Virus record (IMG/VR): IMGVR_UViG_2671180612_000005
Location: 6,888 to 70,887 of that record
DNA length: 64,000 nt
Direction: 5' to 3' (one strand)
DNA from: a virus
Taxonomy: Duplodnaviria; Caudoviricetes
Every line of letters starts with the position of its first letter. The stretch's first letter is position 1. A model generated the notes under the pieces. That model was given only the letters and a program-made list of their open reading frames with translations, was not told where the DNA came from and ran no database searches. Positions 4,630-50,566 of this stretch are shown one piece after another. The position numbers were made by a program, and so were the translations under genes.

Positions 4630-4693
4630 TCCGGCCGTTCACCTCACGGTAAGCGATCCCTTCGATCCTCGCGGCAGGATCGAAGGGAAGACG

Positions 4694-6605: not shown

Positions 6606-6765
6606 GATGTCGGGATGATCCCCCGGGCCAGGCTCCGCCCCATCCACGCACGCCCGCCCCATATCCCGTGCGCCCGCCTGCCCGCCTGCGCGCCCGCCCG
6701 TTCTCCATCCCGCATGCCCGCTGCCCAAGGGTCCGCATACCGTGCACACCCATCGCATCCAGCCC

Positions 6766-6800
6766 CATACGTCCGATAACGTTCGCTTATCGGACGTATG
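6766..6800. repeat. Perfect 14-bp inverted repeat with 7-bp spacer
   Basis: CATACGTCCGATAA-CGTTCGC-TTATCGGACGTATG. Confidence 0.9.
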
Positions 6801-7414
6801 CCGACGAGGCCGAAACGCCTGCGCCGCAAGGGTTTCGGGCATGCGCGCACGTCCGAGCGCCGCCGTATCGGGGCCGCCGCCGACCCCCCGCCGCCGCCCG
6901 GGGCCGCCCGCCGGGGGGAGGGGGTTCGCCGTCGTGATAGAGGGCACATGACCCCTCTGAAGACACGCACCGTTTTCAAAATTCCGGCCCCCTCCCCGTA
7001 TGCGTGGCAAACACTTTTCCCGTCTGCCTCCTGCACACGTTCCCCTCTGCCGCCGCTCCTCCCCTTTCCCCCGCCGCTCCGGGCGATTCCGCCGCCGAAT
7101 CCGCCCCGTCCGCCGCCCTGTGTGCATGGAGCGATTGCAGTCGAAAAAACGCGCCGATTGCAGTTGTCTGCATGGGACGCCGAAACCCTTGCGCCACAAA
7201 GGCTCCAGCCGCCCCTCGCCGCCCGCGTCCGGATTCATCTGACTCGGGTTTCGTGACTCTGGGCCCGAAAACGGACTGAATCGGCCTGATTGCAGTTGTT
7301 TGCATGGGGCGGGACGCCGCCGGACACGGAAACGGCCCCGCAGGACGAATCCTCGGGGCCTCTGGTGGCTGTTTCGGCGTCGAGCCGCGAAAGGGACGGA
7401 TCCGCTCTCACGGG

Positions 7415-12030: not shown

Positions 12031-12464
12031 CGCTGGTGATCCCGGACGCTGGCACGGACGACGCCGAAAATCTCGACGGTCTCGTCGCAGATGCAGATCG
12101 GGTACGTCAGGCGGCTGTTGCGGTGCTCCAGATACGCGACGCCCGACTTAATGCAGAGCTGCCGGCAGACGAACCCGCCCTCGACGGTCGCGATCACGAT
12201 GGAGCCGTTGCGCTGCCTGGCGTCCCGGTCTACGACGACGATGTCGTGGTCCTCGATCCCGGCCTCGACCATGCTCGATCCGGATATCCGGAAGACGAAG
12301 GCCGCCGGCCGGTCGATGCGCAGGAGCTCGATCAGCGAGAGGGCGTCGTCTTCCCAGTCCTGAGCCGGCGAGGGAAAGCCGGCACCGGCGGACGCGACGA
12401 CGCGGAGGCGGAAGCCGGGCGGTATGGCCGTGATCGGATGGGGACGGTTCGAGAGATGGAGCAT
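12027..12464 (-). CDS. umuD: UmuD-like S24 peptidase
   Basis: AGFPSPA cleavage motif, GSSM; Arg at the expected catalytic Lys position (FVCRQL); overlaps umuC. Confidence 0.88.
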   Translation of the reverse strand: MLHLSNRPHPITAIPPGFRLRVVASAGAGFPSPAQDWEDDALSLIELLRIDRPAAFVFRISGSSMVEAGIEDHDIVVVDRDARQRNGSIVIATVEGGFVCRQLCIKSGVAYLEHRNSRLTYPICICDETVEIFGVVRASVRDHQR

Positions 12465-18600: not shown

Positions 18601-18808
18601 GTCGTTTATAGTCCACCTGAGTGAGCTGCGGCGGCTCGATCGGGTTCGGAAGGAGCATTTTGTAAAGCTCGAAGCGCCGATTGCCAAGGCGATCGCCGGC
18701 TTGCGAAGTTCGTCGCCCGAAGGTAGGAGAAAGGAGACTGACAAGGAACTCGCACGTCTTACACGCGAACGTCTCTTGGTCACGATGAAGAAGGAACGGG
18801 AAACGTAG
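15617..18808 (+). CDS. Calcineurin-like metallophosphoesterase fused to STAND/NACHT NTPase (probable anti-phage defence)
   Basis: DFH, GD, GNHD, HH, GHMH; Walker A-like ARAEYGRTT, Walker B VMIDD, winged-helix-like F.Y..VLEYFIA; lower GC. Confidence 0.85.
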   Translation: MANSSLFTILHISDFHYSSRRIREQKPIVDALVADLRSICIGHRKPDLVMFTGDLVQAAGTDLHDVAYDFLLDRVSKATGCSDERIYIAAGNHDLSWVGLQKFETETREWRALVGKQDETEKFNELHEARAFDAAVAEKFANYLDLEKFLSTGFRGSARKLTNAFVTVDHIEALNVDVVTFNTAVLSTGGHKSHDRDERNLVVPEYAVMDAVGVLKEGSLRIFVTHHPLAHLSEQSARYLEAEITKHAQIHLFGHMHDPQPRNIVGLRGEVMTDQAGAIFTSRKEYYNGYSLITLDRSNGHAEILVRSYFKDRDEFDEGTDVVREGRWWPSQEAREHFRKIAAPVDEAAFRDHLRGPALEALLGRENASHGDLESHDRFVAPPLRRTFIQEESGDDTKVQAETPIQFKEVVEGDANLILYARAEYGRTTLLRELRYRLLSDAPMVRFPRVPVLIDFADISVNADNMLRKAKAGCEETPDANDLESLLKLGHACVMIDDVMFHDGKRMKVVRDFVERYPKARYVISSPQYSATKMGASIDPELPVRFEFVEVLELRRNDMRQLLAKDDRCTDVEGWLDRLQDEFREINLPFTAANGSILIEILAEKYNFSPINRSVLMEQFVDSTLRKAAIDQSRRETFDYTNKTSLLSSIAAWMARNDDYIPSREAVRTEMRSYIENVGLIQPVDDLLAEFLSARIFVERSEARISFRYRGVLEYFIALRMTTDPEFKEWVVSDEHYLRYVNEIQYYAGKLRNDVALITQIAERHKRILAETWTGLEKLDLNQFDSIVLPRDDEDSVSVLEREIASPPLSEAEKDAELETEIPTDAEDRQEVFRPSITEDGDKILLSLFLYSGLIKNMELIPDATKREHLSEIWRGWAILLVASLRLAPRLAKERRIRINGALYEVQAPHGMSDTTLLRKMMLMLPHVHVKLLSGALGTEKLERQLSEPSPNGENEPKIYEFFRTSLVADLRLPATPVTATALTEKFRNNRYLLLSFIVHLSELRRLDRVRKEHFVKLEAPIAKAIAGLRSSSPEGRRKETDKELARLTRERLLVTMKKERET

Positions 18809-23957: not shown

Positions 23958-24187
23958 GCGACCGCTCCGTCGATGCCGAGGAACGCCAGGTAGACATCCA
24001 TCGCCTCGATCATCCCGACGGGGACGACCGGCCCACGCCGGACGGCCTCGTCGATGCGGGACCGGGCGACGGAGGCCGGAACGCCGGCCTCCTGCGCGAT
24101 GCGCTCGATCGGGGTGCCGACCCGGTCGAGATACCGGGCGCGGGCCGTCTGCTCCGCGTCCCAATCGGGAAGGTCGGGGCCGGTCAT
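23954..24187 (-). CDS. Small HTH-like protein
   Basis: GTPIERIAQEAGVP. Confidence 0.55.
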   Translation of the reverse strand: MTGPDLPDWDAEQTARARYLDRVGTPIERIAQEAGVPASVARSRIDEAVRRGPVVPVGMIEAMDVYLAFLGIDGAVA

Positions 24188-25647
24188 GCCGTCCTCGTCC
24201 CGTCCAGCGTTCCCCTGAGGTCCTTCATCATCTTCAAGGACCGCTGCTCGGCCGCGATGCGCGTCTCGATCGAGGCGATCTCCGCGTCGAGGGCGACGAC
24301 CAGGGCGGGCGCCGCGGTCTTCGGCGAGGAGGCGGCCCGTCCGCGCACGAGAGACCGCTTCTTCTTGACCGCGGCGGTGGTGCGGCCGAGGTGCCCCGCG
24401 ATCTCCACGAGGGACTTCCCGGCCGCGTCGGCCGTCGAGAGGTATTTCAGGTCGGCGTCCGTCCACGGAGCGCCGAAGGGATTCTGTTCGGTGGTGTCGG
24501 CGGACATGGTCGTCTCCTGTTCGGCTTCGGTTTGGGTCTGCTGGACGACTTCGGGCTTGGCGTCCCGGATATCGTCCACCACGGGCGCCTGCTCCGGCAG
24601 GGCCTCGGGGACCTCGTGGACGATCTCGGGCGCGGACTGGGCAATCTCGTCCGCCGGCGTCGCGACGTCGGACGGGTAGAGAAGCTTCAGCGGCTCGGCA
24701 TCGAGGTCGCGGGGAGCCGGATACGGCATGTCGACGCCGTAGCGGCCTGACACGTAGGACCGAGTCGCGTTCGGGGTCCGGCCGTCCTTCGCGAGCATGG
24801 CATCGATCTGCGCGATGGTGAGGGGAACGATCCGCGAGATGCGCAGCGACGTCGCGCCCTCTGCGTGCAGCTCCAGGACCCGGCTCTTCGTCGCCATGGT
24901 CGAATAGCCGGTGCTGCGGTCCGAGATGGCATCCTGATGCCTCCGGCGGATCTTCGCGATCTCGCGGTCGACCTGCACGACGCCGCAGCCGAGGACCTTC
25001 GCGATCGTGCGCGAGTCCTTGCCATCGGCCCAGAGCTTCTCGATGCCGACCATCATGTCGACGGTCCACCCACCCTCCCCGGTGCGACCTGGATCCTCGG
25101 AAACGTTCGGAGCATCGGGACCGGCGGCGGCGCGAGCCTTCGCGATCTCGCGGACCTTCAGGCCCAGGTACGTCGCCCTGTTCTGGACGCTCGCCCTCTG
25201 CTGCCCGAGCCCGATCGCGATGTCGGCGACGGCATGCCCGGCCAGCATCCTGGTCCGGATCGTCTCGTCCTCCTGGGGCGTGAAGAAATGCCGGGCATCG
25301 ATGGACTTCCGGGCGTTGACGACGGTCCCGAGCGGGATCCTCGGCGTCTCGACCTCGAAGCCCGCCTGCTGCAGCACGACGGCCGCCTGATCCTTCGAAA
25401 CGCCGACGCGCTGGGCGATGCGGCTGAGACGGTACTTCTCGACGCGGTGCAGCTCGACGATGCGGTCGCGCTGGAACTGCGTCAGCTGCTGCGACGCGCC
25501 GAGGCGGGTCATACGGGTCTGCACGGCGCCGACGGAGACGCCGAACTGGTCGGCGACGACCGGACCCGGCGTCTTGAGGAGGGAATGGAGGCGGAGGGCT
25601 TCGTCCTCCTCCGCGGTCCACTGCTTGTAGCCTGCACGGACGCCCAT
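24184..25647 (-). CDS. Multi-HTH (Myb/GcrA-like repeat) DNA-binding protein
   Basis: Repeated WT.EED-type helices followed by IA..LG motifs. Confidence 0.7.
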   Translation of the reverse strand: MGVRAGYKQWTAEEDEALRLHSLLKTPGPVVADQFGVSVGAVQTRMTRLGASQQLTQFQRDRIVELHRVEKYRLSRIAQRVGVSKDQAAVVLQQAGFEVETPRIPLGTVVNARKSIDARHFFTPQEDETIRTRMLAGHAVADIAIGLGQQRASVQNRATYLGLKVREIAKARAAAGPDAPNVSEDPGRTGEGGWTVDMMVGIEKLWADGKDSRTIAKVLGCGVVQVDREIAKIRRRHQDAISDRSTGYSTMATKSRVLELHAEGATSLRISRIVPLTIAQIDAMLAKDGRTPNATRSYVSGRYGVDMPYPAPRDLDAEPLKLLYPSDVATPADEIAQSAPEIVHEVPEALPEQAPVVDDIRDAKPEVVQQTQTEAEQETTMSADTTEQNPFGAPWTDADLKYLSTADAAGKSLVEIAGHLGRTTAAVKKKRSLVRGRAASSPKTAAPALVVALDAEIASIETRIAAEQRSLKMMKDLRGTLDGTRTA

Positions 25648-26036
25648 CAGAGTGCCCCCTGCTCGGCCGTAGCCTCGGTCAGGTCGACGCGGTACGCCGC
25701 CTTGTTCTTGAACGGCGCTAGGAACGCGTCGTCGAGCGCGACGCCGGCGTCGGCGGCGACCTTCTCGGCGACCTGCTTCCACTGCGTCCCGCCCGGGATC
25801 AGGTTCCGAGTGGCGACGCAGCCGACGCCCTTCGTGGGCTTGTCGGAGAGCTTCACGAACTCCGCCGGCGCCTTCTCGAGCTCCTCGAAGCGCTTGCGCA
25901 TCTGGCGGATCATCTGGAGGCTGTCGGCGACGGTCAGGCCGGAGAGGAGGTCCTCGGCGGTGACCAGGAGGGCGTTCAGGCCCTCGACGGTCACATCGTA
26001 GTTCTCGCGGTGCGAGAGGTTGGCTCTGGCGGACAT
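25647..26036 (-). CDS. Hypothetical protein
   Basis: MSARANLSHRENY...; TGATG overlap. Confidence 0.65.
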   Translation of the reverse strand: MSARANLSHRENYDVTVEGLNALLVTAEDLLSGLTVADSLQMIRQMRKRFEELEKAPAEFVKLSDKPTKGVGCVATRNLIPGGTQWKQVAEKVAADAGVALDDAFLAPFKNKAAYRVDLTEATAEQGAL

Positions 26037-30177: not shown

Positions 30178-31485
30178 TCAGACGGGCTCCTCGATCCCGA
30201 TCCACGGCATCTTCGCTCGATCCGCCGCTTCCATCATGGCGTCCCTCAGGACGTCCCTCTGCGACCGCTGGACGAGGAAGGAGTCGTGGATGGGAAGGCA
30301 CGTCACGCCCTTCCTCATCAGGCTCGTCAGGACGAACTCGGCCATCTCCGCATCCCGGAGCATGAACGTCGCTCCCGCGTCCGAGAAGAACAGGTTCTCG
30401 ATCTGCCAGTGCACCTGCCGGATCCTGTTCAGGAGGCTCGTCGCCCGGATCCTCGCCTCCCTCGATCTCGGGATCGCGCCGATCCTCTTGTTCCCCGCGA
30501 CCGACTTCATCGCCTCGTCGAACGATTTGGCGTTCAGGGCGGTCATCATCGCCGCCTTGACCAGCTTCCGGTCCCAGCCGCCGCCGATGTCGTAGCTGTC
30601 TTGCGGTGGCATCAGGCCCACCATCGCGTATGCCATCGTCGGATGGATCGTCGCGTAGTCGAGCTCGCAGACCGCCTCGCCGCCGATGAGGATCTTCCGT
30701 CGCTCCGCCTTCTTCAGGACCTGCCAGGCGCCGCCGGTGGCGTAGAACCGCCCGCCGCGTGAAAGGTCGAGGTTGAAGATCCGGACGAGGCAAGCCGATC
30801 CCGTAGAGACGTCGGCCTCGCGCAGCCACTCGTTCAGTCCCTCGGCGATGCGCCGCCACTTCTTCGTCTCGGCGGTCTCCCTGAAGTCGATCAGCTCGCC
30901 CGTCTTGTCGCGAAGCTGGACGAGGCTCTTCGGATCCGGCCTCTGCGCCTTCGGAACGCCGACCTTGGCGATCACGCCGGCGACGATGTCGAGGAGCGCC
31001 TTCGTCGGGCGGAAGCAGCTCCTCCAGCCCTCGACGCCGGGCTTCTGGCGCCAGTCGTCGATCAGATCGAGGGCCTTAAGGTGCTCGATGCCCTGCATGA
31101 CCAGACGCCACGTGTAGACCTTCGACGGCTCGCGCTGCACGAATTCCGGATCGCGGAGCGCGGCGGCCTTGTCCTTGTTCCGGTCGAGGACCTTCTTCCA
31201 GACGTAGTGCTCGGCCCGGGCCGAGTAGCTGATCCAGCGGCCGCTGACCTTCGCCGCGAAATACGCCGCCAAGGCGATCGCGGCGGTCGTCTCGGCGCAT
31301 TCCAGTACCTCGCACAGGGCGAGCCAGAAGGGCCGGTGCTCGTACCGCATGGAAAGCGGGATCTGGGAGTGTTCGTACGGCTCGCCGACGGTCGGCCCGA
31401 TGTCCTCCATCGGGATCGGGAAATCCTGGTCGTCGCCGTAGGCCGGATAGAACGGAGTGGGGGAAAGGAGGGGTTGGGGGTGCAA
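30178..31485 (-). CDS. Small family-A polymerase superfamily protein (T7-RNAP-like motifs)
   Basis: RGGRFY, ELDY, RKLVKAAMMTA, IHDSF; start uncertain. Confidence 0.7.
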   Translation of the reverse strand: MHPQPLLSPTPFYPAYGDDQDFPIPMEDIGPTVGEPYEHSQIPLSMRYEHRPFWLALCEVLECAETTAAIALAAYFAAKVSGRWISYSARAEHYVWKKVLDRNKDKAAALRDPEFVQREPSKVYTWRLVMQGIEHLKALDLIDDWRQKPGVEGWRSCFRPTKALLDIVAGVIAKVGVPKAQRPDPKSLVQLRDKTGELIDFRETAETKKWRRIAEGLNEWLREADVSTGSACLVRIFNLDLSRGGRFYATGGAWQVLKKAERRKILIGGEAVCELDYATIHPTMAYAMVGLMPPQDSYDIGGGWDRKLVKAAMMTALNAKSFDEAMKSVAGNKRIGAIPRSREARIRATSLLNRIRQVHWQIENLFFSDAGATFMLRDAEMAEFVLTSLMRKGVTCLPIHDSFLVQRSQRDVLRDAMMEAADRAKMPWIGIEEPV

Positions 31486-31682
31486 TTTCTCGGCTCACTG
31501 GTGGCCGGCTGGTCAGGCCGGTTTGTAAAACGGGGTATCTCAGGACGCCCGATTCGCTCAGCATGCCGATTGTTGACGCGAGAGTCGATACCCCCTAGTA
31601 TTCCGCAGAGAATCGGGGGGTCTCACTGGCCTCCGGTCTCCGAAAGCCGCCCCCCGGATTGGTCTCCGGATCAGGGCGGCTT

Positions 31683-31919
31683 TCACATTTCGGGGTGTCG
31701 CCTCTCGTGCCGCGCCCGCGCCTTCGCGACGACGCGGATCTGGTGTTTTTCCGCCTTCAGGACGGCGAGCACGACCCGCCTGCCCCACCGTTCCTCCGCC
31801 GCCTCCCGGCCATGGCTCGCGATCAGAGACCGGACCTTCTCGGGCTTCGGGACGAAGGTCACCCTGTCGCTCCACAGGGACTCGTTGCCGTGCCAGGCGT
31901 GCAGGCTCGCATCCGACAT
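31683..31919 (-). CDS. Hypothetical protein
   Basis: GGAGG RBS, TGATG overlap. Confidence 0.55.
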   Translation of the reverse strand: MSDASLHAWHGNESLWSDRVTFVPKPEKVRSLIASHGREAAEERWGRRVVLAVLKAEKHQIRVVAKARARHERRHPEM

Positions 31920-32956: not shown

Positions 32957-33201
32957 GCGGCGCTCCGATGCCGGCGGACGGCCTCGACGAGCGCGGCTTG
33001 GGCGGCCGGCTGTGTCATTCGGCTCCACGACCTGTCCTCGAGGACGGCGATCGCCTCGCACGGCGTGAGACCGCCGCGGGCGTCGAGACGGTCGAGCGTC
33101 TGATGGTGGTTCACCTGCGCCTGCGCTTCGTGCGGCGCGATCATCGACCATGGGATCGACGGGACGGCGCGGTCCAAGATCGCGAAGAGACGGTCGCTCA
33201 T
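32953..33201 (-). CDS. Small phage hypothetical protein
   Basis: IPW..IAPHEAQA..NH.QTL.RL..RGGL. Confidence 0.7.
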   Translation of the reverse strand: MSDRLFAILDRAVPSIPWSMIAPHEAQAQVNHHQTLDRLDARGGLTPCEAIAVLEDRSWSRMTQPAAQAALVEAVRRHRSAA

Positions 33202-33737
33202 CCGGCGATCCCTTCCAGACAGAGCTTCCGCTCCTCGACCCGGCGCCTGGTCAGGCCCTTCACCTCGCGGCCGCCGGCGCGGTTCCATCGCAGGAGGGCG
33301 TCGCACGCGCCGCGGACGTCGCCTGCGTTGATGCGCTTGGCCATGGAGCTTCCGCAGAAGCCGCGCTGGCCGTAGCCGACGTTGTAGGTGACGGAGAGCA
33401 TCGCCACCCTCACCTTCACCGGTAGGGTCTCGGGCGAGACGAGGCAGGCGTTCATACCCTTCTCGAAGGTCAGGAGGCTAGCCACGAGCATGTCGTCGCA
33501 TTCCGCCTTCGTGCGGCTGTCGCCCATCTTCACGCCGCGGGTCTCGCCGTAGCAGACGGTCGGGATGCCCACGATGTCCTTGTAGGCTTCCGTCCGGAGG
33601 CCCTCGAAGTCTCCGATCAGCGCGACCGCCATCGCTGTCATCGCGGCGCCGCCGGTCAGGACGCGACCGGAGGTGGTCTTCGGCACGATCTTGGGCACCG
33701 CCTTCGGCGCCGACTTGAAGAGATCCAGGATCCTCAC
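33198..33737 (-). CDS. GH24 lysozyme (endolysin, possibly SAR type)
   Basis: FEG-8-D-5-T (FEGLRTEAYKDIVGIPTVCYG), YNVG, GLTRRR..E. Confidence 0.92.
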   Translation of the reverse strand: MRILDLFKSAPKAVPKIVPKTTSGRVLTGGAAMTAMAVALIGDFEGLRTEAYKDIVGIPTVCYGETRGVKMGDSRTKAECDDMLVASLLTFEKGMNACLVSPETLPVKVRVAMLSVTYNVGYGQRGFCGSSMAKRINAGDVRGACDALLRWNRAGGREVKGLTRRRVEERKLCLEGIAG

Positions 33738-33958
33738 TGCTGCTTTCCCCCGTTCGACAGATTGGCTTGGGCGACCAGCCTCGCGACGAAGGCACCGCCG
33801 GCGGCCGCGCCCCCGAGGAGTCCCAGGAGGTGGTCGGGAATGACGTCGGTGAAGAAGGGCAGCGCGTACTCGGCGACCGAGAGCAGGAAGGCCGCGCCCA
33901 TGAAGCGGATCGACCAAGCCTTCCGGAGGATGGACTTCCAGTCCTCGACGAACCTCAT
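33734..33958 (-). CDS. Holin
   Basis: DWK..LRKAWSIRF, 2 TM, ARLVAQ; directly upstream of endolysin. Confidence 0.75.
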   Translation of the reverse strand: MRFVEDWKSILRKAWSIRFMGAAFLLSVAEYALPFFTDVIPDHLLGLLGGAAAGGAFVARLVAQANLSNGGKQQ

Positions 33959-34410
33959 GGCGTTCTCTCCCACCCCTGCAGGCCCTTCCCGAGGACGTCC
34001 CTGCATGCGAGCTCGAGGAGCGCCGTCGCGGTCGCCTCCGCGTCGCTCGTAAATCTTCCAAAGACGAATTGCTGATGGTCGTGGGCGGCCTTCAGCCACC
34101 CGTCGCGGGTCATCCACGTGTCCGCCGAGAACCGCCGGCGGAACTCCTTCGAGCCGACGTGAACGAGGTCGACGCCGCACAACCCGCAGAGCGTCCGAAG
34201 CAACGTCAGCATCGGCACGGTCGCCCGTCCGGACCAGACGACGAAGCGGGCGACGTCGACGGCTTCGAACATCTGCGCGTAGGCGCGGGCCAGCGTCCGT
34301 GGATCGGCGGCGTCGTCGACGAGGATCTCCCTCGTCGACCTCATCCGACCGTAGTACTCGGTCGCGACACCGATGGTGCCGTCGCCGAAATGGATGGCTG
34401 ACCCCTTCAC
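33955..34410 (-). CDS. Hypothetical protein (possibly degenerate RuvC-like)
   Basis: GTG start with GGGGGA RBS; coupled to holin. Confidence 0.5.
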   Translation of the reverse strand: MKGSAIHFGDGTIGVATEYYGRMRSTREILVDDAADPRTLARAYAQMFEAVDVARFVVWSGRATVPMLTLLRTLCGLCGVDLVHVGSKEFRRRFSADTWMTRDGWLKAAHDHQQFVFGRFTSDAEATATALLELACRDVLGKGLQGWERTP

Positions 34411-34495
34411 GCATCCCCCGATGCAAACAGGTCCCCCGACCTGATGTGGGATGGATACGTGTCGTCCTAACCTACTACAAGGGTTAGTTTTTCCG

Positions 34496-34918
34496 TTAAG
34501 AAGCGAGACTCCGGCGGTGACGGTCGCGGGCGGTCCGGCGACGGTCGGCGAGGGTCACTGGCGGCTCCTGGACGCGTGCCCGGCAGACGACGTCCCAGTA
34601 CGTTTCCGCCTTGCCGGTCAGGTCCTGGTACCGCTTTGCGACGGACGGATGCATGTCCGCGAACTTCAGGCGGTCGGACAGTTTAAGGACGACGGGATCG
34701 ACCCAACGCTCGCGAGAAAGGGCTCCGGTGCGGCCGGCCTTCTCCATCGCCTCGAGTCCGGTCCCGATCTGCGAGACGAGGTATTCCCGCGAAACGACGA
34801 CCCCCTTCCGGGCCAGGTGCTGCAACAAATCCGCGACCGTAAGCCTTCCCGTCAGAACGTCTTGCTGGATCAGAGGGGACAAATCATGGATCACGTGCTC
34901 GATCAATTTCGCGCCCAC
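34496..34918 (-). CDS. Hypothetical protein (lower GC)
   Basis: 3' part of a long ORF; GTG start after the bidirectional promoter. Confidence 0.45.
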   Translation of the reverse strand: MGAKLIEHVIHDLSPLIQQDVLTGRLTVADLLQHLARKGVVVSREYLVSQIGTGLEAMEKAGRTGALSRERWVDPVVLKLSDRLKFADMHPSVAKRYQDLTGKAETYWDVVCRARVQEPPVTLADRRRTARDRHRRSLAS

Positions 34919-34934
34919 CTCGTAAACACTCCAG

Positions 34935-34984
34935 TTCGAGTTCGCCCTACGCGCATGTATACCCGTCGGCAGGGGGAACTCGAA
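34935..34984. promoter_or_regulatory. Bidirectional late promoter
   Basis: TTCGAG-N17-TATAC on both strands, centred on GTATAC. Confidence 0.7.
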
Positions 34985-34987
34985 ACG

Positions 34988-35464
34988 ATGTCCGACACCA
35001 CACTCATCAGAACCGTGCCGCCGCACCCGCAGCGGACCATGGAATGGTATGCGGCCTTGGCCTTGATCGGCTGGGGCCTGGTACTTCTGCAGCCGCAGTC
35101 GCTTTTCCAGCGCGAAGCCTTCCAGGCGTTCGGCCACGTCGTGGCGGAGAACGCGCTCGGGTGGACCATGCTCGCCGTCGGCATCATGCGCGCCGCCGCG
35201 CTCTACGTGAACGGCCGCTGGCGGAGGACGCCCTTCTTCCGCGCCGCCGGCGCGATGGTGGGATCGGCAATCTGGTGCGGCCTCGTCGCCCTTTTCGTCG
35301 CGACCGACGTCTCGGTCTTCGTCCAGCGAGGCGGGACCCTCTCGACGTTCTTCTGGGACTACCAGACCTCCACCGCCATCGTCGTCTACGGCCTCCTGGC
35401 CGCATTCGAGAGCCTCAGCGCGTACCGCTGTGGCAAGGACATCGTCCGCGTCTCCCGACGCTGA
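34988..35464 (+). CDS. Phage membrane protein (4 TM)
   Basis: R..EW..A..LIGWG...VNGRWRRTP..R. Confidence 0.75.
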   Translation: MSDTTLIRTVPPHPQRTMEWYAALALIGWGLVLLQPQSLFQREAFQAFGHVVAENALGWTMLAVGIMRAAALYVNGRWRRTPFFRAAGAMVGSAIWCGLVALFVATDVSVFVQRGGTLSTFFWDYQTSTAIVVYGLLAAFESLSAYRCGKDIVRVSRR

Positions 35465-35491
35465 TCGCATTCGCATAGGGGGAGCGAAGAC

Positions 35492-35812
35492 ATGTTGGGC
35501 ATTCCGAACGAACTCTGGGTCGTGCTGTTGGGCACGGCGCTGCCGGCGCTTTTCGTGTTCCTGGGCACGGTCGTGCAGAAGCGCCGGCCCGATCCGATCG
35601 GCACCGCGGCCATCCGCCAGGAGCCGATCTACGTGATGGCGGCCGGCGACCGCGTGGTGTTCGAGGGCATCCGCGACGCCATCCAAGGTGTTGTCGACTG
35701 CGTCGAGGACGGCGGCCGCACTGCGAAGCGCGGCATCGACGCGGTGGAGGATCTGGCGCGGGCGATCGAGCTGCTCGCGGCGGAAGCGCGGGCGAGGCGC
35801 GTCAATGTCTAG
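35492..35812 (+). CDS. Small membrane-anchored protein
   Basis: N-terminal TM, GGGGAG RBS. Confidence 0.65.
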   Translation: MLGIPNELWVVLLGTALPALFVFLGTVVQKRRPDPIGTAAIRQEPIYVMAAGDRVVFEGIRDAIQGVVDCVEDGGRTAKRGIDAVEDLARAIELLAAEARARRVNV

Positions 35813-36572
35813 GAAGCTCGCCAACGACTATCGACGCGCCCGCATCCAGCGGCGCGTCGCCGCCGGCGACGATCCCGAACAGATCCAGAAGGACGAGGCC
35901 GCCGCCTACGTCGGCATCGATCAGGTCGTGCCGTCGGAAGCGCAGCTCTATTCCGTCTACGAGTTCGCGAGCGAGCACGAGGAGAACGCCCGGATCTACG
36001 AGCTGTTCGAGACGCAGGTCGGCGTCGCGGTCCTGTCCGGCATGACGGAGGACCAGATGGCGGCCTGCGTGCTCTCGCCGACGGACGGCCTGCCGATCTC
36101 GACGTCGCGCTTCCTGGACATCTTCGGGGACTACCTGGAGCACGCCGAGGCGCGGATCATCCTGCGCAACAACTCGGAGCTCTTCCAGACCGCCCTGACC
36201 GGCGAGAAGGGCGACCGCGTCAGGGCGCAGGTCTTCATCGCGGAGAGGAAGGCGGGCTGGATACAGAAGAAGGAGACCAAGGCCGAGATCACGCTGCAGG
36301 CCAAGATCGAGACCGAGGAACGCGTCACGGTGACCCGCACGAACGTCTTCGCCGCCCTCGACAAGCTCGCCGACCAGCTGCGCGACAGCGGCAAGACGAT
36401 CGACGCCGAGGGCTTCCTGCGCGACGCCGATGCGGAGAACGCGCTGATCCCGACACTGACCGCCTTCGACGACGGCCTCTCGAACGGCAAGGCCACGATG
36501 CTGAACGTGAAGAAGACGGCGGTCCTCCCGCCCCTTCCGAAGAAGCCGAAGTGGGACGCCGAAGCGAAGTAG
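35805..36572 (+). CDS. Putative terminase small subunit
   Basis: Directly upstream of TerL; LFQTA..G..RAQVF...KAGW. Confidence 0.65.
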   Translation: MSRKLANDYRRARIQRRVAAGDDPEQIQKDEAAAYVGIDQVVPSEAQLYSVYEFASEHEENARIYELFETQVGVAVLSGMTEDQMAACVLSPTDGLPISTSRFLDIFGDYLEHAEARIILRNNSELFQTALTGEKGDRVRAQVFIAERKAGWIQKKETKAEITLQAKIETEERVTVTRTNVFAALDKLADQLRDSGKTIDAEGFLRDADAENALIPTLTAFDDGLSNGKATMLNVKKTAVLPPLPKKPKWDAEAK

Positions 36573-36576
36573 GCGC

Positions 36577-36605
36577 TTCGAGATGGATCATCCGCTCGCT
36601 ACAAT
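36577..36605 (+). promoter_or_regulatory. Late promoter motif
   Basis: TTCGAG-N17-TACAAT. Confidence 0.7.
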
Positions 36606-36626
36606 GGCGTAACGGGGGATTTTACG

Positions 36627-38099
36627 ATGACCGAACTGAGCGGAGGGCTGTCCGCGGAGGACCTGGCGGCGGTTCTTGCCGATCCGGAGATGGACGTCTG
36701 CACGAAGGCGGCGATCCAGATGCAGTCCGACTTCCTGAAGAAGGCGCGGCCGAAGCAGATCATGCCGGGCGGCGACTGGGACGTCTGGGTCTTGAGATGC
36801 GGGCGCGGCTTCGGGAAGAACTTCTGCGGCAGCCACAACTTCGGCATCGCCGCCCTGAAGAACCCCGGGTCGCGCATGGCGGTGCTGTCGCCGACGGCCG
36901 CGACGCTCCGCCGAGACGCGTTCGAGGGCAAGGACGGTCTGGCGAAGGTGATCCCGGCATACGCCATCGCCGAACACCACAAGTCCTACAACGAGATCCA
37001 CCTCCACAACGGAACGATCCTGCAGGGCTTTCCGATGGAGAGCCCGGACCGTCTTCGCGGGCCCAGCTTCCATGCGGGATGGCTCGACGAAGTCTGCGCC
37101 GCCGGTGCCAAAGCGCAGGAAGCCTGGGACATGTACAACTTCTGTCTCCGCCTCGGCGAGAAGCCGTGGACGATGATCACGACGACGCCGAAGCCGATGC
37201 GCCTGATCCGCGACATCGAGGCCGACAAGTTCACGAAGCTGACGATCGGCACGACGCTCGAGAACCTCGCGAACCTGCCGCCGACGCAGCAGCGCCGCCT
37301 CCTGCGGTACATGAACACGCCGCTCGGCCGCCAGGAGATCTTCGCCGAGATCCTGGACGAGTCCGACCTCAAGAACCCGATCAAGAGGAAATGGTGGGCG
37401 CAATGGGACCAGCCCCGCGTTCCTCCGCCGGCGCACATCGTCGTTAGCTTCGACACCGCCTTCAAGTCGAAGAAGGAGTCGGATTCGACCGCCTGCACCG
37501 TCTGGGGCGCCCTGCGGGTGGGCGTGCGCCGAAAGGGCGTCATCCGTCCGGAATGGGTCACCCTCCTGCTCGATTCCTGGAAGAAGAAGTTGGATTTCCC
37601 GCACCTCAAGCGCGCCGCCTACCTCGAGCGCGAGAAGTGGATCGGGATGGCCGGCGAGGCATGCGAGGTCACGACGCTGATCGAGGACAAGGGCTCCGGA
37701 CAGAGCCTGATCCAGGAGCTGAACGCCGCCGGCGTGCCGTGCGTGCCGTACAATCCCGGCCACGACTCCAAGCTCATGCGCGCCCACGCCGTCAGCGATC
37801 TGTTCGCCGAGGGAGCCGTCTTCGCCCGCGTCTACGACCATCCGCAGGACGGACGGATCTTCGTGCCGACGGCCGACGAGGTGATCACGGAATGCGAGAA
37901 GTTCGGCGACGAGGGCGTGCCGTCGGACGACTACGTCGACTCGACGAGCCAGGCCCTGACGTTCCTGCGCAACGAGGGTTGGTTGGGCAAGGAGTCGGAC
38001 CGCGAGTTCCACCAGGCGATCTCGGCCGAGCCCCCCGAGGAGAAGGACGATAACGGCTGGGACGACGACGAGGACGAGACGGAGCCGCTCTACGCGTGA
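36627..38099 (+). CDS. terL: Terminase large subunit
   Basis: GRGFGK, LRGP..WLDE, TTTP, SFDTA, IEDKGSG, DDYVDS. Confidence 0.95.
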   Translation: MTELSGGLSAEDLAAVLADPEMDVCTKAAIQMQSDFLKKARPKQIMPGGDWDVWVLRCGRGFGKNFCGSHNFGIAALKNPGSRMAVLSPTAATLRRDAFEGKDGLAKVIPAYAIAEHHKSYNEIHLHNGTILQGFPMESPDRLRGPSFHAGWLDEVCAAGAKAQEAWDMYNFCLRLGEKPWTMITTTPKPMRLIRDIEADKFTKLTIGTTLENLANLPPTQQRRLLRYMNTPLGRQEIFAEILDESDLKNPIKRKWWAQWDQPRVPPPAHIVVSFDTAFKSKKESDSTACTVWGALRVGVRRKGVIRPEWVTLLLDSWKKKLDFPHLKRAAYLEREKWIGMAGEACEVTTLIEDKGSGQSLIQELNAAGVPCVPYNPGHDSKLMRAHAVSDLFAEGAVFARVYDHPQDGRIFVPTADEVITECEKFGDEGVPSDDYVDSTSQALTFLRNEGWLGKESDREFHQAISAEPPEEKDDNGWDDDEDETEPLYA

Positions 38100-38152: not shown

Positions 38153-40501
38153 ATGCACATGGGAAGCAAGGAGTTCGGCGAGTTCGCGCCGGTGGATCCG
38201 CTAGACATGTTCCGCGACATGGAGGAGGTCGAGCTCGAGGACCTCGACGCGGCGTCGTCCGACGCGGACGAGCCCGAGGACCACTTCGCGAACCTCGTTA
38301 CGACGCTCGACGTGGACGATCTGAAGAAGATCGCCTCCGAGCTCGTCGACCGCGTCGATACCGACATCGAGGAACGGGACAGGCACGACCGCTTCATGCT
38401 GAAGGGCATGGAAGCGATGGGCATCGATAGGGACGAAATCCGCACGGGTGCATTCGCCGGTTCGTCGACCGTACGACATCCCCTCCTCGCGCAGGCCTGC
38501 GTCGACTTCCAGTCCCGCATCACACGCGAGCTGCTGCCCGCCGGCGGCGCCGTCCGCGCCGTTCCGAGCGAGGGCTACGACGAGGCGTCCGGATCGCTTC
38601 GCCGCGCCGAGGTCTACGCCAACCGGCGCATCCTGTCGTCCGGCGGCTGCGGCTATTCGGAATCGCTCGAGCAGGCGTTCATCCGTCTTCCGCTGGCCGG
38701 CAGCGTCATCCGCAAGGTCCGTCAGGGTCCCGACGGGGCCGTGTCCGAGACGATCGCGACCGGAGATTTCGCTGTCCCGTATTCCGCGACGACGCTCCAG
38801 TCCTCGCCCCGGAACACGCACATCCTGCGCCTGCACAAGCACGAGGTGGACCTCAACTTCCGCAGCGGCCTGTGGAAGCGCTTCGATCTCGACGAGCGCG
38901 GCGACGAGAGTCGCCGTCCCGAGTCGCAGTCGAAGAAGCACGCCCAGCGCGTCACCGGACAGTCGAAGTCCAGCGAGGACGACGATCGCTACGTCTTCTA
39001 CGAGGTCCATTGCTGGTGGGCCGTCGAGGACGAGGAGGAGGAGCGCCCTTACGTCGTCGTGATCCATCCCGACACCGAGACCGTGTGCATGGTCCGGCGG
39101 AACTGGGATCCCGCCGACGGCGCGATGCAGCCGATCCAGCACTTCGTCCACTATCGCTACCTCCCGTGGGAGGGCTTCTGGGGCATCGGCCTCTTCCACC
39201 TCATCGGCGGCCTGTCGTCGGCCGCGACCGGCTCGCTGCGGGCCCTGATGGATTCGGCCGTCCTCCAGAACATGCCGACCGGTCTGGCCGACAAGAGCGC
39301 CGGCGTCACGAAGGGCGGCAAGCTGAAGCTCGAGCCGCTCGGCTTCACGAACGTCACGCTTCCGACCACCGGCGGCGACAGGGACATCCGCAAGCACTTC
39401 ATGCCCCTGCCCGTCGCCGGGCCGTCGGCGACGCTGTTCTCGCTCCTGCAGTTCATGGTGTCCGAGGGCAGCGAGTTCGCCTCCGTCGCGATCAAGGGCC
39501 TGGCGGACGCGTCCGAGCAGGCGCCGGTGGGAACCACGATGGCGCTCGTCGAGCAGGGCTCGATCGTGTTCGCTTCGATCCACCTGCGTCAGCATCGGAG
39601 CTTCGCGCAGGAACTCCGTCTGTTCCAGCGCGTGACCCGCGACTGGATGCCGGCGGAGGGCGACGACGGCGTCCAGAAGGAGGACTTCGACGACGTCCTG
39701 ATCCTCGTGACGGCCTCCGACCCGTCCACTTGGTCGTCGGTCCAGCGCGTGACCCAGGCCCAGGCCGTCGTCCAGATGGCCCAGCTCGCCAACTCTCTCG
39801 GCGTGAAGGTCGATCTGCGCTCGGCGTTCATCACCATGTCCAAGGCGCTCGGCGTCGAGGATCCGGAGGCCATGTTCCCCAAGGAGGAGCAGCCGCAGCC
39901 GCCCCCGCCGATGCAGCCCCAGGAGGAGTTCGCGGCCATTCTGCGCGGGCAGCCGACGCGGGCGTATCCGGGCCAGAACCACGATGCCCACAAGGCGTTC
40001 TACGAGCAGGTCCTGCAGGATCCGTCCTACGCCAAGGCGCTGGAGAAGGCCCTGCCGTCCGTCCTCGCCTGCCATGCCGACCACACGGCGCAGGGCGTCC
40101 TGGACGAGATCGCCCGCATCACGGGCCAGCAGCCGCCCGAGGTCGACCCGATGCTGTGGCAGTCCGCCATGGTCGCGGCCGAGGCGGCCGCCCGTCTCGC
40201 GCAGACCCGTCGCGCCTCCGATCCGGCCGTCGTCGCCGTGCAGGAGGACGCGAAGACGCGGATCGAGATCGAGAACCGCAAGCTGCAGCAGCGCGACACG
40301 CAGATCATCCAGACCGGCGAGCTCAAGTTCGCCGAGCTGGCGAGCCGCGAGCGCATCGCCGTGGCCGAGATCGAGGCGAAGGCGGCGAACCTCGTAACCG
40401 AGGCGTCGATGCAGCGCGAGGAGGCCGAGCGACGTTCGGCCGACGCCCGCGAGAAGGCGGCGTTCGACGCCGCGAACAAGGCACCGGAGGTCGTCCTTTG
40501 A
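38153..40501 (+). CDS. Portal protein
   Basis: HPLLAQACVDFQS, LPLAGS..RK, FWGIGL.HLIGGL, APVGTT.AL. Confidence 0.9.
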   Translation: MHMGSKEFGEFAPVDPLDMFRDMEEVELEDLDAASSDADEPEDHFANLVTTLDVDDLKKIASELVDRVDTDIEERDRHDRFMLKGMEAMGIDRDEIRTGAFAGSSTVRHPLLAQACVDFQSRITRELLPAGGAVRAVPSEGYDEASGSLRRAEVYANRRILSSGGCGYSESLEQAFIRLPLAGSVIRKVRQGPDGAVSETIATGDFAVPYSATTLQSSPRNTHILRLHKHEVDLNFRSGLWKRFDLDERGDESRRPESQSKKHAQRVTGQSKSSEDDDRYVFYEVHCWWAVEDEEEERPYVVVIHPDTETVCMVRRNWDPADGAMQPIQHFVHYRYLPWEGFWGIGLFHLIGGLSSAATGSLRALMDSAVLQNMPTGLADKSAGVTKGGKLKLEPLGFTNVTLPTTGGDRDIRKHFMPLPVAGPSATLFSLLQFMVSEGSEFASVAIKGLADASEQAPVGTTMALVEQGSIVFASIHLRQHRSFAQELRLFQRVTRDWMPAEGDDGVQKEDFDDVLILVTASDPSTWSSVQRVTQAQAVVQMAQLANSLGVKVDLRSAFITMSKALGVEDPEAMFPKEEQPQPPPPMQPQEEFAAILRGQPTRAYPGQNHDAHKAFYEQVLQDPSYAKALEKALPSVLACHADHTAQGVLDEIARITGQQPPEVDPMLWQSAMVAAEAAARLAQTRRASDPAVVAVQEDAKTRIEIENRKLQQRDTQIIQTGELKFAELASRERIAVAEIEAKAANLVTEASMQREEAERRSADAREKAAFDAANKAPEVVL

Positions 40502-41195: not shown

Positions 41196-41225
41196 TTCGA
41201 GTTGGACGTGGCGACATCGTAAATA
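41196..41225 (+). promoter_or_regulatory. Late promoter motif
   Basis: TTCGAG-N18-TAAATA. Confidence 0.55.
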
Positions 41226-41563: not shown

Positions 41564-41593
41564 TTCGAGATGGACGGGGCGGCGTCGTACACT
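41564..41593 (+). promoter_or_regulatory. Late promoter motif
   Basis: TTCGAG-N18-TACACT; 26-bp identity with 43208-43233. Confidence 0.7.
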
Positions 41594-41666
41594 TCCGTCA
41601 TCGAAGGGATCGGGGGATCCCGCAGGCGCAGCGAGCGCCGGACAGTTCGAGCCGGGGGATCGATCC

Positions 41667-42206: not shown

Positions 42207-43133
42207 ATGTCCAACATCATCACGACCGCCAACTTCCGGCGCAGGGTCCTGCCGATCCTCGACCGCTCGTTCGACGACCACACGGCCAAGGGGCCTGAAG
42301 AGTGGAAGAGCTGGTACGACGTCGAGGACGGCGCCGCGGCCGCCTTCGAGGAGGAGTCCGGCCTGACCGGCTTCGGTCTTCCGACCGAGCTCGGCGAAGG
42401 CGAAGCGATCACCTACGACATCGCCAAGGACGGATTCGTCACGCGCTTCCTCTGGTCCGAGTTCGGCTCCGGCTTCAAGATCACCAAGCGGATGATCGAG
42501 GACGGCCAGGGCGAGAGCCTCACGACCAAGCTATCGAAGATGCTCGGCGTCTCGTTCCGCGAGGCCCGCGAGCTCATCCACGCCTACCTGCTCAACTCCG
42601 CCTTCACCCGCGTCCGCCCGGACTTCGACAAGAAGCCGATCATCGCGACGGACCACCCGATGGCGGGCTTCGGCATGGGCGGGCAGGTCTGGTCGAACCG
42701 GCTTCCCGACGCGCAGTTCTCCGAGGCGGCGCTCGAGGACGCGGATATCTTCATCTCGAAGGCGACCGACCAGCGCGGCCTGAAGATCTCGCTGAAGGCC
42801 AAGGACATCGTGATCCCGTCGGAGCTCAAGTACGACGCGGTCCGGATCCTGCGATCCAACGGCCAGGTCAACACGCCGAACAACACGGCGAACGCGCTCA
42901 AGATCGAGGGCACGTACGGCACGGACGCGAAGGTCCTACGGTACCTGACCTCCTCGACCGCCTGGTTCATCATGACCGATGCGGACCGTGGTTTCATCCA
43001 CAAGACCCGCAACGCCCTCGAGCGCGGCATGCACGGCGACTTCGAGACCGGCAACACGGCCTATAAGGCGACCGAGCGCTACGGCGTGAACATCGGCGAC
43101 GTCCACAAGGTCTACGGCTCCGTCGGAGCCTGA
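42207..43133 (+). CDS. Major capsid protein
   Basis: AFEE..LTGFG..EG..I.YD, GF.IT..IED, YLT...AWF, DFETGN..YKATERY. Confidence 0.9.
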   Translation: MSNIITTANFRRRVLPILDRSFDDHTAKGPEEWKSWYDVEDGAAAAFEEESGLTGFGLPTELGEGEAITYDIAKDGFVTRFLWSEFGSGFKITKRMIEDGQGESLTTKLSKMLGVSFREARELIHAYLLNSAFTRVRPDFDKKPIIATDHPMAGFGMGGQVWSNRLPDAQFSEAALEDADIFISKATDQRGLKISLKAKDIVIPSELKYDAVRILRSNGQVNTPNNTANALKIEGTYGTDAKVLRYLTSSTAWFIMTDADRGFIHKTRNALERGMHGDFETGNTAYKATERYGVNIGDVHKVYGSVGA

Positions 43134-43213: not shown

Positions 43214-43242
43214 TTCGAGATGGACGGGGCGGCACGTAATTT
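43214..43242 (+). promoter_or_regulatory. Late promoter motif
   Basis: TTCGAG-N17-TAATTT. Confidence 0.7.
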
Positions 43243-44988: not shown

Positions 44989-45656
44989 GCACCCGCCTCG
45001 ACTACGACGAGCTCTTCGAAGAGGCGTCCGGCCGCATCGGCGGCGAGGCCGTGGCAGGCTTCACCGCCCGCGAAGGCCGCCTCGCGCTCCGGCTTCTGTT
45101 CTCGGACTGGGCGAACCGCGGCTGTCAGATGTGGCAGCTCGACGAGATCGTCGTGCCGTTGGCCGCGGCGACCACCCTTCCCGCCGACACGACCGACGTC
45201 GTCGAGGCGTTCGTCCGCATCGACGGTCGGGACCGTACCATTCAGCGGATCGGCCTGACGTCCTGGGTCGACGTCGAGGAGAAGAGCGCCGCAGGCCGCC
45301 CGTGCTCGTACCTCGTCGAGCGGCGCCGCGACGCGCCCGTCCTCCGCATCTCTCCCCTGCCCGACTTCGCAGGCGAGCTGCACGTCTGGCGGATCCGCGA
45401 GGCGACCGCAGTGTCGTCGATGTCGGACTTGGTCGACGTCCCGGAGCGCTTCCTCGCCTCCGCCGCGGCGGGGCTGGCGTACCAGCTCGGCCTGAAGCGG
45501 CTCGCGAAGCAGGCGGCCGAGAAGAACGAGAACCTCCGCTTCCTCATCCAGACGCTCAAGGCCGAGTACGAGCAGCTGCTCCTGAACGCGCTCGAAGCCG
45601 ACCGCGAAACGGCGACGATCCGGTTCGCGGTCGACATGGGAGGCTACTTTGACTGA
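44985..45656 (+). CDS. Head-tail adaptor-like virion protein
   Basis: L.LLFSDWANRG..WQ, GRP, P.PD, DVPERF...GLAY.L. Confidence 0.75.
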   Translation: MSTRLDYDELFEEASGRIGGEAVAGFTAREGRLALRLLFSDWANRGCQMWQLDEIVVPLAAATTLPADTTDVVEAFVRIDGRDRTIQRIGLTSWVDVEEKSAAGRPCSYLVERRRDAPVLRISPLPDFAGELHVWRIREATAVSSMSDLVDVPERFLASAAAGLAYQLGLKRLAKQAAEKNENLRFLIQTLKAEYEQLLLNALEADRETATIRFAVDMGGYFD

Positions 45657-46874: not shown

Positions 46875-47568
46875 GGTCCGTGACGCCACGCCCCTGAATA
46901 GGTTCGAGCTGACCCGCACCGGCGAGGGCGTCGGGATCTGGGCGGCGGTCGGCGTCAATGCCGTGCTGTCCTCGATCGACGAGGCGATGGACGGCGCCGC
47001 CACCATCGCGTCCGGCAGCATCGTCGCCCGCACCGGTTCGTCCGACGACCTGCGCCGGCGCGTCTGGCACGTGGTAGGCGATGCGCGGACGATCTTCGTG
47101 CCGGAGTTCGCCGGCGTCCGTTTCGTCTCATGCGACGCGGCCGGCGTCGTCCTGCGCACATCGCGCAGCTTCGTCGAGCTGCCGGCCGGCCTGTCCACGG
47201 TGCACATGCTCGACGGGACGATCCGGCGCGTCGTCGATCGCGATCCCATCGCCGTGGACGTGCCGACGGCGAATCCAGTGAAGCGCCGGACGGTCTCGCT
47301 GATGTCGACGCTTGCGGACGCGGTGCTCCCGGCGCCGACGCCGGGCGACTGGATCGTCGTCTCGGCCGGGCCGAACGGCTCGACGATCACCGGTCCCATC
47401 CAGAGCCGGATCCAGCGCCGCGGCCTGGCGACGCTCGGCCGGACGCTGACCACCGGAGGCCGCCGCATCGTCGCGGCATTCTGGGACGGGGACACGACCT
47501 CCGTCCGCATCGGCGCCGGTCGGACGGCGCGCTTCGTCGCCTACGAGGGGACCTGGATCCAGTGCTGA
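46867..47568 (+). CDS. Tail-associated protein, paralogous to the preceding gene
   Basis: RFEL...G...W....N.....IDEA.DG. Confidence 0.6.
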   Translation: MSEVRDATPLNRFELTRTGEGVGIWAAVGVNAVLSSIDEAMDGAATIASGSIVARTGSSDDLRRRVWHVVGDARTIFVPEFAGVRFVSCDAAGVVLRTSRSFVELPAGLSTVHMLDGTIRRVVDRDPIAVDVPTANPVKRRTVSLMSTLADAVLPAPTPGDWIVVSAGPNGSTITGPIQSRIQRRGLATLGRTLTTGGRRIVAAFWDGDTTSVRIGAGRTARFVAYEGTWIQC

Positions 47569-49517: not shown

Positions 49518-49744
49518 GGATCCCCAACTCGCCAAGGACCGGGATCGCGGCGCTGGATCGGTTTCTCTCGGACCTGGTCGCGGCGCTGCGGAAGCCCGAG
49601 TCGGAGAGCTACCTGCCGACTGTCCCGTTCGAGGCCGTGGACAGCGTCGGCGTCGGCCGGTCGGGATATCTCTTTCAATGTCCGGATCACCCGGATGGGT
49701 ACCGCTTGGGCGTGACGACGGGTACGGAGGTCCGTTGGATCTGA
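49514..49744 (+). CDS. Small virion-associated protein
   Basis: ATGA overlap. Confidence 0.55.
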   Translation: MRIPNSPRTGIAALDRFLSDLVAALRKPESESYLPTVPFEAVDSVGVGRSGYLFQCPDHPDGYRLGVTTGTEVRWI

Positions 49745-49803
49745 GCCTGTGGCTTGCCGGCCGGTAGGTTCTCGCACAACGTGTGTGTAAGGAGGACCTG
49801 ACC

Positions 49804-50537: not shown

Positions 50538-50566
50538 TTCGAGTTAGACCTTTCGGTTGGTAGTTT
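50538..50566 (+). promoter_or_regulatory. Late promoter motif
   Basis: TTCGAG-N17-TAGTTT. Confidence 0.65.

Follow-up and report, generated by a model that had tools for sequence, protein, structure and literature searches.

Bidirectional promoters form a described class in which the two directions have a shared or overlapping -10 element, with start sites on either side of it or within it (PMC12825309; Warman, Grainger and colleagues, bioRxiv 10.1101/2020.01.31.928960). The commonest separations between the two starts are 18, 10, and 23 base pairs (bp), simultaneous binding of two polymerases is described as sterically impossible, and competition is said to arise only when one direction is strongly activated (PMC12825309). 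A candidate for this class is considered here, namely a 50-bp inverted repeat (hereafter the dyad) at positions 34935-34984 of the analysed window, which comprises 64,000 of the 70,887 bases of IMG/VR provirus record IMGVR_UViG_2671180612_000005 and has 67% G+C. The dyad takes up 50 bp of a 69-bp non-coding gap (34919-34987), and we judge the chance to be a little short of even that a bidirectional promoter region, with two divergent and overlapping promoters, has its core here and heads both of the late operons that diverge from the dyad.

Gene orientation flips at the dyad, as the initial annotation of this DNA had noted, with lysis genes to the left (holin, endolysin, spanin-like open reading frames (ORFs), and a terminator) and terminase, portal, and head genes to the right. 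Its coordinates for the element were also exact: the arm cores TTCGAGTTC and GAACTCGAA are exact reverse complements, and the arms and the palindrome GTATAC are both centred on 34959.5. The + strand reads TTCGAG-N17-TATACC and the - strand TTCGAG-N17-TATACA, again as first described, and the two -10-like hexamers overlap by 4 bp and have TATA in common. A repeat search extends the arms to 14 nucleotides (nt) each (TTCGAGTTCGCCCT and AGGGGGAACTCGAA), complementary at 13/14 positions (93%) and 22 nt apart, and also returns an overlapping 28-nt palindrome of 75%. Read on the + strand, the right arm contains the ribosome-binding site (RBS) of the rightward gene, GGGGGA (34972-34977).

The dyad symmetry by itself counts for little. 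The window contains 65 perfect 9-nt inverted repeats whose loops are no longer than 40 nt, compared with 36.7 ± 8.3 in first-order Markov randomisations, and 14-nt inverted repeats with one mismatch give eight matches at five loci, compared with 2.4 ± 2.3 and a maximum of 9 in 60 Markov randomisations. The remaining 14-nt repeats with at most one mismatch lie at 4656-4690, 6765-6801, 11346-11398, and 45599-45633, the copy at 6766 being perfect with a 14-7-14 layout. A second TTCGAGTTC at 17252 was taken as chance, lying within an ORF of 1063 amino acids (aa) at 15617-18808. An alphaproteobacterial LexA box (GTTC-N7-GTTC) was dropped, the left arm having only GTTC-N2-GTTC, as were GANTC methylation sites, of which the dyad has none. 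The dyad was not called as an intrinsic terminator, with no T-run 3′ of either arm and the terminator scan silent there, and Rfam covariance models gave no matches on either strand of 34300-35600 at expectation values (E) up to 1.

The sequence of the arms recurs elsewhere among the late genes. The core TTCGAG-N17/18-TA is present nine times in the window, counting both strands, compared with 1.44 expected from a first-order Markov model, and seven of these copies lie in intergenic gaps, namely both dyad arms and positions 36577, 41196, 41564, 43214, and 50538, while the remaining two (43041 and 33608) are coding. All five gap cores outside the dyad are on the + strand, each before a late gene, and the core count expected by chance in the 69-bp dyad gap is 0.0009. 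When all hexamers were counted without bias in the 12 gaps of the rightward block, TTCGAG came first, in 9/12 gaps with 0.86 occurrences expected, ahead of the Shine-Dalgarno hexamer GGGGGA in seven gaps; the count rests on an approximate gene map, in which the gaps at 46875-47129 and 49518-49782 may be coding.

The five late sites share the consensus cgcTTCGAG[AT]T[GA]GAC-N11/12-TAnnnT, with TAnnnT found in four of them (the site at 41196 has TAAATA, without the final T). Their modules follow the order TTCGAG, 17-18 bp, an A+T hexamer, 6-9 nt, GGGGGA, 5-10 nt, and a start codon, and 3/5 sites stand 12 nt past terminator hairpins with T-runs, a terminator-promoter layout. These features fit promoters better than any other signal class, and the five-member motif is probably the late promoter class of this phage. 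The sites at 41564 and 43214 have 25 identical bases in common (GCCGC...GCGGC around the hexamer). TTCGAG is also found without an A+T hexamer at N17/18 in four more + strand gaps (38112, 41646, 46903, and 49628), and the copy at 41646 is only 2 nt upstream of a GGGGGA RBS. RNA structure was rejected as what unites the late sites: local stems contain or adjoin several of the TTCGAG copies, but the hexamer sits at differing stem and loop positions, so there is no conserved structure. An 18-nt piece of the motif had an exact match in one viral contig (L082), which was coding and in a contig with no TerL relative, and the match was set aside as chance.

Both dyad arms have the core of the late motif (TTCGAG, N17, and TA), each lying in a gap and preceding a gene of its own strand, and they share TTCGAGnT with the motif. 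The rightward layout at the dyad, TTCGAG-17-TATACC-8-GGGGGA-10-ATG, repeats that found upstream of terL (36577) and of the gene at 43263. The distance from TTCGAG to the start codon is 53 nt at ATG 34988, 50 nt at terL, and 49 nt at 43263, and it is also 49 nt at the 50538 site if the gene there begins at GTG 50587, a start placed by reading of the sequence.

If the dyad is a pair of promoters, rightward transcription would use TTCGAG in the left arm (34935-34940) as -35 and TATACC (34958-34963) as -10, with a start near 34970, just upstream of GGGGGA and ATG 34988. Leftward transcription would use TTCGAG in the right arm (34984-34979) as -35 and TATACA (34961-34956) as -10, with a start near 34949, ahead of GGAG and GTG 34918. 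The A+T patch TGTATACC would be the natural melting point for both directions. Two promoters in the 69-bp gap would have to overlap, since the RBS of each gene lies within 20 bp of an arm, and a polymerase bound one way would exclude the other orientation, because the -10-like hexamers share TATA and each -35 lies within the early transcribed region of the other promoter. The candidate reader is a host sigma-70-type enzyme, perhaps aided by a phage factor such as the D5-like regulator encoded at 24187-25782. The gene layout and the recurrence of TTCGAG-N17/18-TA before late genes are established from the sequence, whereas promoter activity of the core, firing from both arms, and the form of polymerase that would read them are inferred. 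The proposal of the initial annotation that such a switch balances assembly against lysis found no support: the first two genes on each side are neither lysis nor assembly genes, and competition at bidirectional promoters is reported to arise only under strong one-way activation (PMC12825309).

The dyad is only a partial member of the late-motif family, and several observations on its arms, together with some of those on its relatives, weigh against the promoter pair. The arms, TTCGAGTTCGCC and TTCGAGTTCCCC (TTCGAGTTC[GC]CC), lack the family block [AT]T[GA]GAC, and neither TATACC nor TATACA ends in T. In leave-one-out matrix scoring, the members reach 18.6-30.5 bits and the arms 6.2-11.8 bits, the 99.99th percentile of the background being 9.3-10.1 bits; with the full matrix, the arms rank 15 and 38 among ~128,000 positions. 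With the hexamers as set in the initial annotation, the arms match the E. coli consensus TTGACA/TATAAT at 6/12 positions (2+4). A sigma-70 consensus scan of 33000-37000, which required at least 9/12 matches to TTGACA-N16-18-TATAAT and a -10 whose second base is A and whose sixth is T, called only 36578-36605 and not the dyad. Sigma-70-like sites over 15000-54999 are no commoner than in shuffles, and, by a count from the sequences, 3/5 late sites are no better than the arms by the same consensus. In favour of the arms, the housekeeping -10 consensus of at least one alphaproteobacterium, Caulobacter crescentus, ends in C (GCtANAWC; PMC13004042). The late motif is present in no other - strand gap, so the leftward promoter is argued from symmetry, and the four gaps with TTCGAG and no -10-like hexamer at N17/18 mean that the hexamer may be a protein-binding site and not a -35 element. 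The earlier interpretation as a promoter pair thus stands as to the gap position, the presence of TTCGAG-N17-TA in both arms, and the operon labels, and is weakened by the 6/12 consensus match and the borderline matrix score.

Contigs from two public sequencing runs (X1 and X2, ~88-90% identical), each run sharing a small part (0.06) of the words of the window, cross the dyad with no insertion or deletion in 34879-35462; no RNA run was listed as containing this stretch. Among the differences listed, none shared by X1 and X2 falls in 34934-34986, while the flanks within 34854-35174 have 15 shared differences listed per 268 nt, the closest at 34933 and 34987. At the flank density, ~3 differences would be expected in 53 nt, with a probability of none of ~0.05, and more would be expected if the gap were neutral. 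The differences listed are 40 of 174 and leave out those found in X1 or X2 singly, although their order suggests that they include all shared differences up to 35174. A further comparison is offered by P0002, the sole close relative (88% identical) of the orphan protein encoded by the first leftward gene, whose predicted gene begins farther upstream, so that its translation runs through the gap, reading MFQFPLPTGIQTVRANSNWGVYKVGAK where the - frame of the window reads RFEFPLPTGIHARRANSNWSVYEVGAK. Its FQF in place of FEF implies a right-arm hexamer of TTCCAG (G-to-C), with no compensation in the left arm, where ANSN is kept. P0002 also implies that the left half of the spacer has changed at several positions and that the TATA core is probably intact, and 6/27 gap codons differ, which is about the average divergence. 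The comparative data, which are thin, mildly favour constraint on the block, and they argue against a strict requirement for pairing or perfect symmetry.

Wider searches covered more distant relatives. No relative was found among viral contigs with the orphan protein, the membrane protein, or TerL as query, or among genome or metagenome contigs with a two-sequence alignment (A1). A 15-sequence TerL alignment retrieved 80 viral loci with 34-40% identity, in which tblastn found TerL in 80/80, portal in 38/80, and each of eight other query proteins, including all of the junction genes, in 0/80; these loci are of no use for the dyad because none shares the junction genes. At ~34378-34385, inside the start of the 151-aa gene, X1 and X2 both cease to match the window leftward, which is likely to be a mosaic boundary between the relatives.

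Other explanations of the dyad must be weighed against divergent promoters. It is possible, though unlikely, that only the rightward promoter, formed by the left arm and TATACC, is real, with the right arm kept as RBS and 5′ leader and the leftward operon starting elsewhere, or with the mirror being a relic of an inverted promoter-RBS duplication. The five clear family sites are all on the + strand, their modules recur in the same sequence and at the same distances on the + side of the dyad, and the motif is missing from every other - strand gap; moreover, the - strand mirror of GGGGGA (GGGCGA) has no in-frame start after it, and P0002 implies a changed right-arm hexamer and a left arm that keeps at least 4/6 checkable positions. 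The leftward operon would nevertheless still need a promoter, for which the consensus scan and the matrix gave no alternative in 34988-35464, and an exact second TTCGAG would stand at N17 from the same A+T patch by chance only about once in 1000 cases. Quite unlikely, in our estimate, is a role as operator or activator site, bound by a DNA-binding protein that is symmetric or acts in pairs and switches both late operons together, in which case the arms would not be -35 elements. Exact dyad symmetry is typical of protein-binding sites, the arms lie on the same face of the helix because their centres are 41 bp apart (about four helical turns), and four further gaps have TTCGAG without a -10-like hexamer. 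The candidate binders would be the D5-like regulator with its several helix-turn-helix segments and phrog_323 match and the orphan protein encoded beside the dyad, for which three N-terminal helices are predicted at low confidence. A simple dimer would not, however, typically have half-sites 41 bp apart, no family was detected for the orphan protein, whose model is too poor to use, and at the five late sites there is one hexamer in one orientation at a fixed, -35-like distance from the A+T hexamer.

A functionless chance origin, or another kind of DNA site at the lysis-packaging junction such as a cos or pac packaging site or a recombination site, is judged very unlikely. Packaging sites lie between lysis and terminase genes in many temperate phages, yet the terS-like gene begins 820 bp from the dyad, with two genes between. 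This G+C-rich window has many perfect 9-nt inverted repeats (65 against 37 expected), but chance is improbable because of the arm content, with 0.0009 cores expected in the gap, and the lack of shared differences listed there in the two relatives. Most improbable of all is an RNA hairpin in a longer leader that masks GGGGGA of the 34988 gene and controls translation or mRNA stability. Folding of the 50 nt gives -24.2 kcal/mol (z -3.5) for the + strand and -25.4 kcal/mol (z -4.5) for the - strand, with the right arm pairing across the RBS, but these z-scores are biased because the stretch was chosen as an inverted repeat, and with flanks they drop to -2.2 (+) and -0.85 (-). Such a leader would also require promoters inside the opposite genes, where neither the consensus scan nor the matrix found any; Rfam gave no match, P0002 implies a change that is not compensated, and the hairpin is not a terminator, having no U-run. 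A hairpin would, in addition, leave unexplained the identity of the arms with the late-gene motif and the TA at N17.

Overlapping divergent promoters remain the reading that we prefer, and they allow a bolder version, which we consider quite unlikely. The late motif (TTCGAG[AT]T[GA]GAC, 11-12 bp, TAnnnT) may be a promoter class of its own, read by host polymerase only with a phage specificity factor, for example the D5-like protein with its multiple helix-turn-helix segments and a segment resembling sigma region 4. The dyad would then be a two-faced copy of this promoter, weakened on purpose, with each arm serving one operon as its -35 and the other as its leader, so that lysis and packaging compete for one polymerase site.

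Table 1. Coordinates of the dyad elements, late-motif sites, and neighbouring genes in the window.
Feature	Position	Strand	Details
Left arm	34935-34948	+	Perfect 9-nt core TTCGAGTTC at 34935-34943; TTCGAG 34935-34940 is the rightward -35-like hexamer
Right arm	34971-34984	-	Perfect core GAACTCGAA at 34976-34984; TTCGAG at 34984-34979 is the leftward -35-like hexamer
A+T-rich patch	34956-34963		TGTATACC; sole A+T-rich patch of the gap; GTATAC palindrome at 34957-34962
-10-like TATACC	34958-34963	+	Within TGTATACC
-10-like TATACA	34961-34956	-	Within TGTATACC
Late site before terL	36577-36605	+	TTCGAGATGGAT..-N17-TACAAT, GGGGGA, ATG 36627
Late site	41196-41225	+	TTCGAGTTGGAC-N18-TAAATA; 12 nt past an intrinsic terminator; upstream of ATG 41267
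Late site	41564-41593	+	TTCGAGATGGAC..TACACT; 12 nt past a T-run; upstream of the gene at 41667
Late site	43214-43242	+	TTCGAGATGGAC..TAATTT; past a terminator; GGGGGA, ATG 43263
Late site	50538-50566	+	TTCGAGTTAGAC..TAGTTT; then GGGGGG and GTG
First rightward gene, 158 aa	34988-35464	+	phrog_8980; four hydrophobic segments (read from the translation); ATG 34988
TerL	36627-38099	+	
Portal	38153-40501	+	
Major head protein	42207-43133	+	
Orphan gene, 140 aa	34496-34918	-	First of the leftward operon; GTG start at 34918; GGAG upstream at 34932-34929
151-aa gene	33955-34410	-	No family match
Holin	33734-33958	-	phrog_1356, E 2.8e-11; start overlaps the stop of the 151-aa gene
Endolysin	33198-33650	-	Pfam Phage_lysozyme, E 1.8e-36; phrog_7
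Terminator-like hairpin, then UUUC	31625-31695	-	-40.3 kcal/mol, z -5.4; ends the lysis operon after the spanin-like ORFs
435-aa protein	30178-31485	-	Contains PIHDSF and RGGRFY
D5-like regulator	24187-25782	-	532 aa; several helix-turn-helix segments

Genes were defined from codon-position G+C, family searches, and relatives. On the right of the dyad, the start of the 158-aa gene at ATG 34988 is supported by the GGGGGA upstream, and in 34988-35038 the relatives have three differences in common, each of them at a third codon position. This gene is followed by those for a 106-aa protein and a 255-aa protein in the position of terS, and then by TerL.

The leftward unit is a discrete lysis operon of ~3.3 kb. 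The GTG start of its first gene agrees with the 140-aa form of the orphan protein at NCBI, and in both X1 and X2 a C>T difference at 34918 turns this GTG into ATG while an A>G difference at 34906 abolishes an alternative TTG; differences between the window and the relatives in this gene are mainly at third codon positions. The orphan protein matched no Pfam or PHROG family, and among 1.84 billion cluster representatives the only match beyond its own cluster was a repetitive 1369-aa protein (E 1.3e-08, in eight short stretches). Its atlas matches are all <0.9, and its AlphaFold model, with a predicted local distance difference test score (pLDDT) of 50, is too poor for use. The 151-aa protein, as judged by eye, may resemble a RuvC-like resolvase. 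After the endolysin come two spanin-like ORFs, read from their translations, one with an i-spanin-like C-terminal half and the other with an LAGC lipobox. A hairpin with a T-run at 34467-34487 on the + strand, antisense to the lysis operon, lies between the stop of the orphan gene and the next gene; on the - strand the same positions fold weakly (-8.1 kcal/mol, z -0.5), with no U-run.

Beyond the terminator-like hairpin at the end of the operon, a 215-bp gap before the 435-aa gene must, from this arrangement, be presumed to hold a separate promoter. The 435-aa protein falls in a widespread family that has no name and has members in phages and Pseudomonadota (atlas score 0.98; phrog_4756), with no match in Pfam up to E 10 or in PDB sequences at E 1. 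The protein at 24187-25782 matches phrog_323 (transcriptional regulator, D5-like; E 1.3e-21) and has weak matches to Sigma70_r4_2, HTH_38, and GcrA, and it is a candidate late-gene factor. A pair of genes on the - strand at 10771-12464 within the provirus record encodes UmuD-like (Peptidase_S24) and UmuC-like (IMS) proteins, and the UmuC-like gene (10771-12030) has 90% identity to genes of Aureimonas, its closest relatives, which suggests Aureimonas as the host genus or host DNA inside the record. This UmuC identity and the weak GcrA match in the phage regulator make an alphaproteobacterium belonging or close to Aureimonas the probable host. The phage lineage itself is isolated, with the best non-self TerL 43% identical.

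If the dyad drives both operons, it would be a compact, natural, and fully symmetric bidirectional promoter that couples phage lysis and packaging operons, and it would offer a first way into the late promoters of a lineage of alphaproteobacterial proviruses that has hardly been studied (nearest TerL ~43% identical). Current understanding would be unchanged, because bidirectional promoters and polymerase competition at them have already been described. Of more use, as a by-product, is the late-gene motif, whose recurrence defines a small regulon that can be tested.

Operator dyads occur in divergent phage control regions. The dyad is like them in being an exact inverted repeat in a short divergent gap with one small neighbour that may have a helix-turn-helix, but it differs in that its half-sites are 41 bp apart, no DNA-binding family was detected for the neighbour, and the arm sequence is single at the other late genes. 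In contrast to the late-motif sites, the dyad is not preceded by a terminator and comprises two inverted copies. With the bidirectional promoters described in the sources cited at the outset, it has in common opposite-strand -10-like hexamers that overlap around a palindromic TATA between divergent genes, with predicted starts on either side. The differences are that its predicted starts are 21 bp apart and not 18, 10, or 23; that its symmetry extends over 50 bp to both -35-like elements, whereas the described class is symmetric in the -10; and that its -35-like element is the TTCGAG of this phage and not TTGACA. The sigma-73 promoters of C. crescentus (PMC13004042) are similar in their alphaproteobacterial -10 ending in C, as TATACC in the dyad fits TANA.C; they differ in that the -35 of the dyad does not fit their TTGaCg and in that the host here is inferred, as Aureimonas-like, and spacer rules may differ too. 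If it is a bidirectional promoter, the dyad would be an ordinary kind of element in an unusually neat and fully symmetric form.

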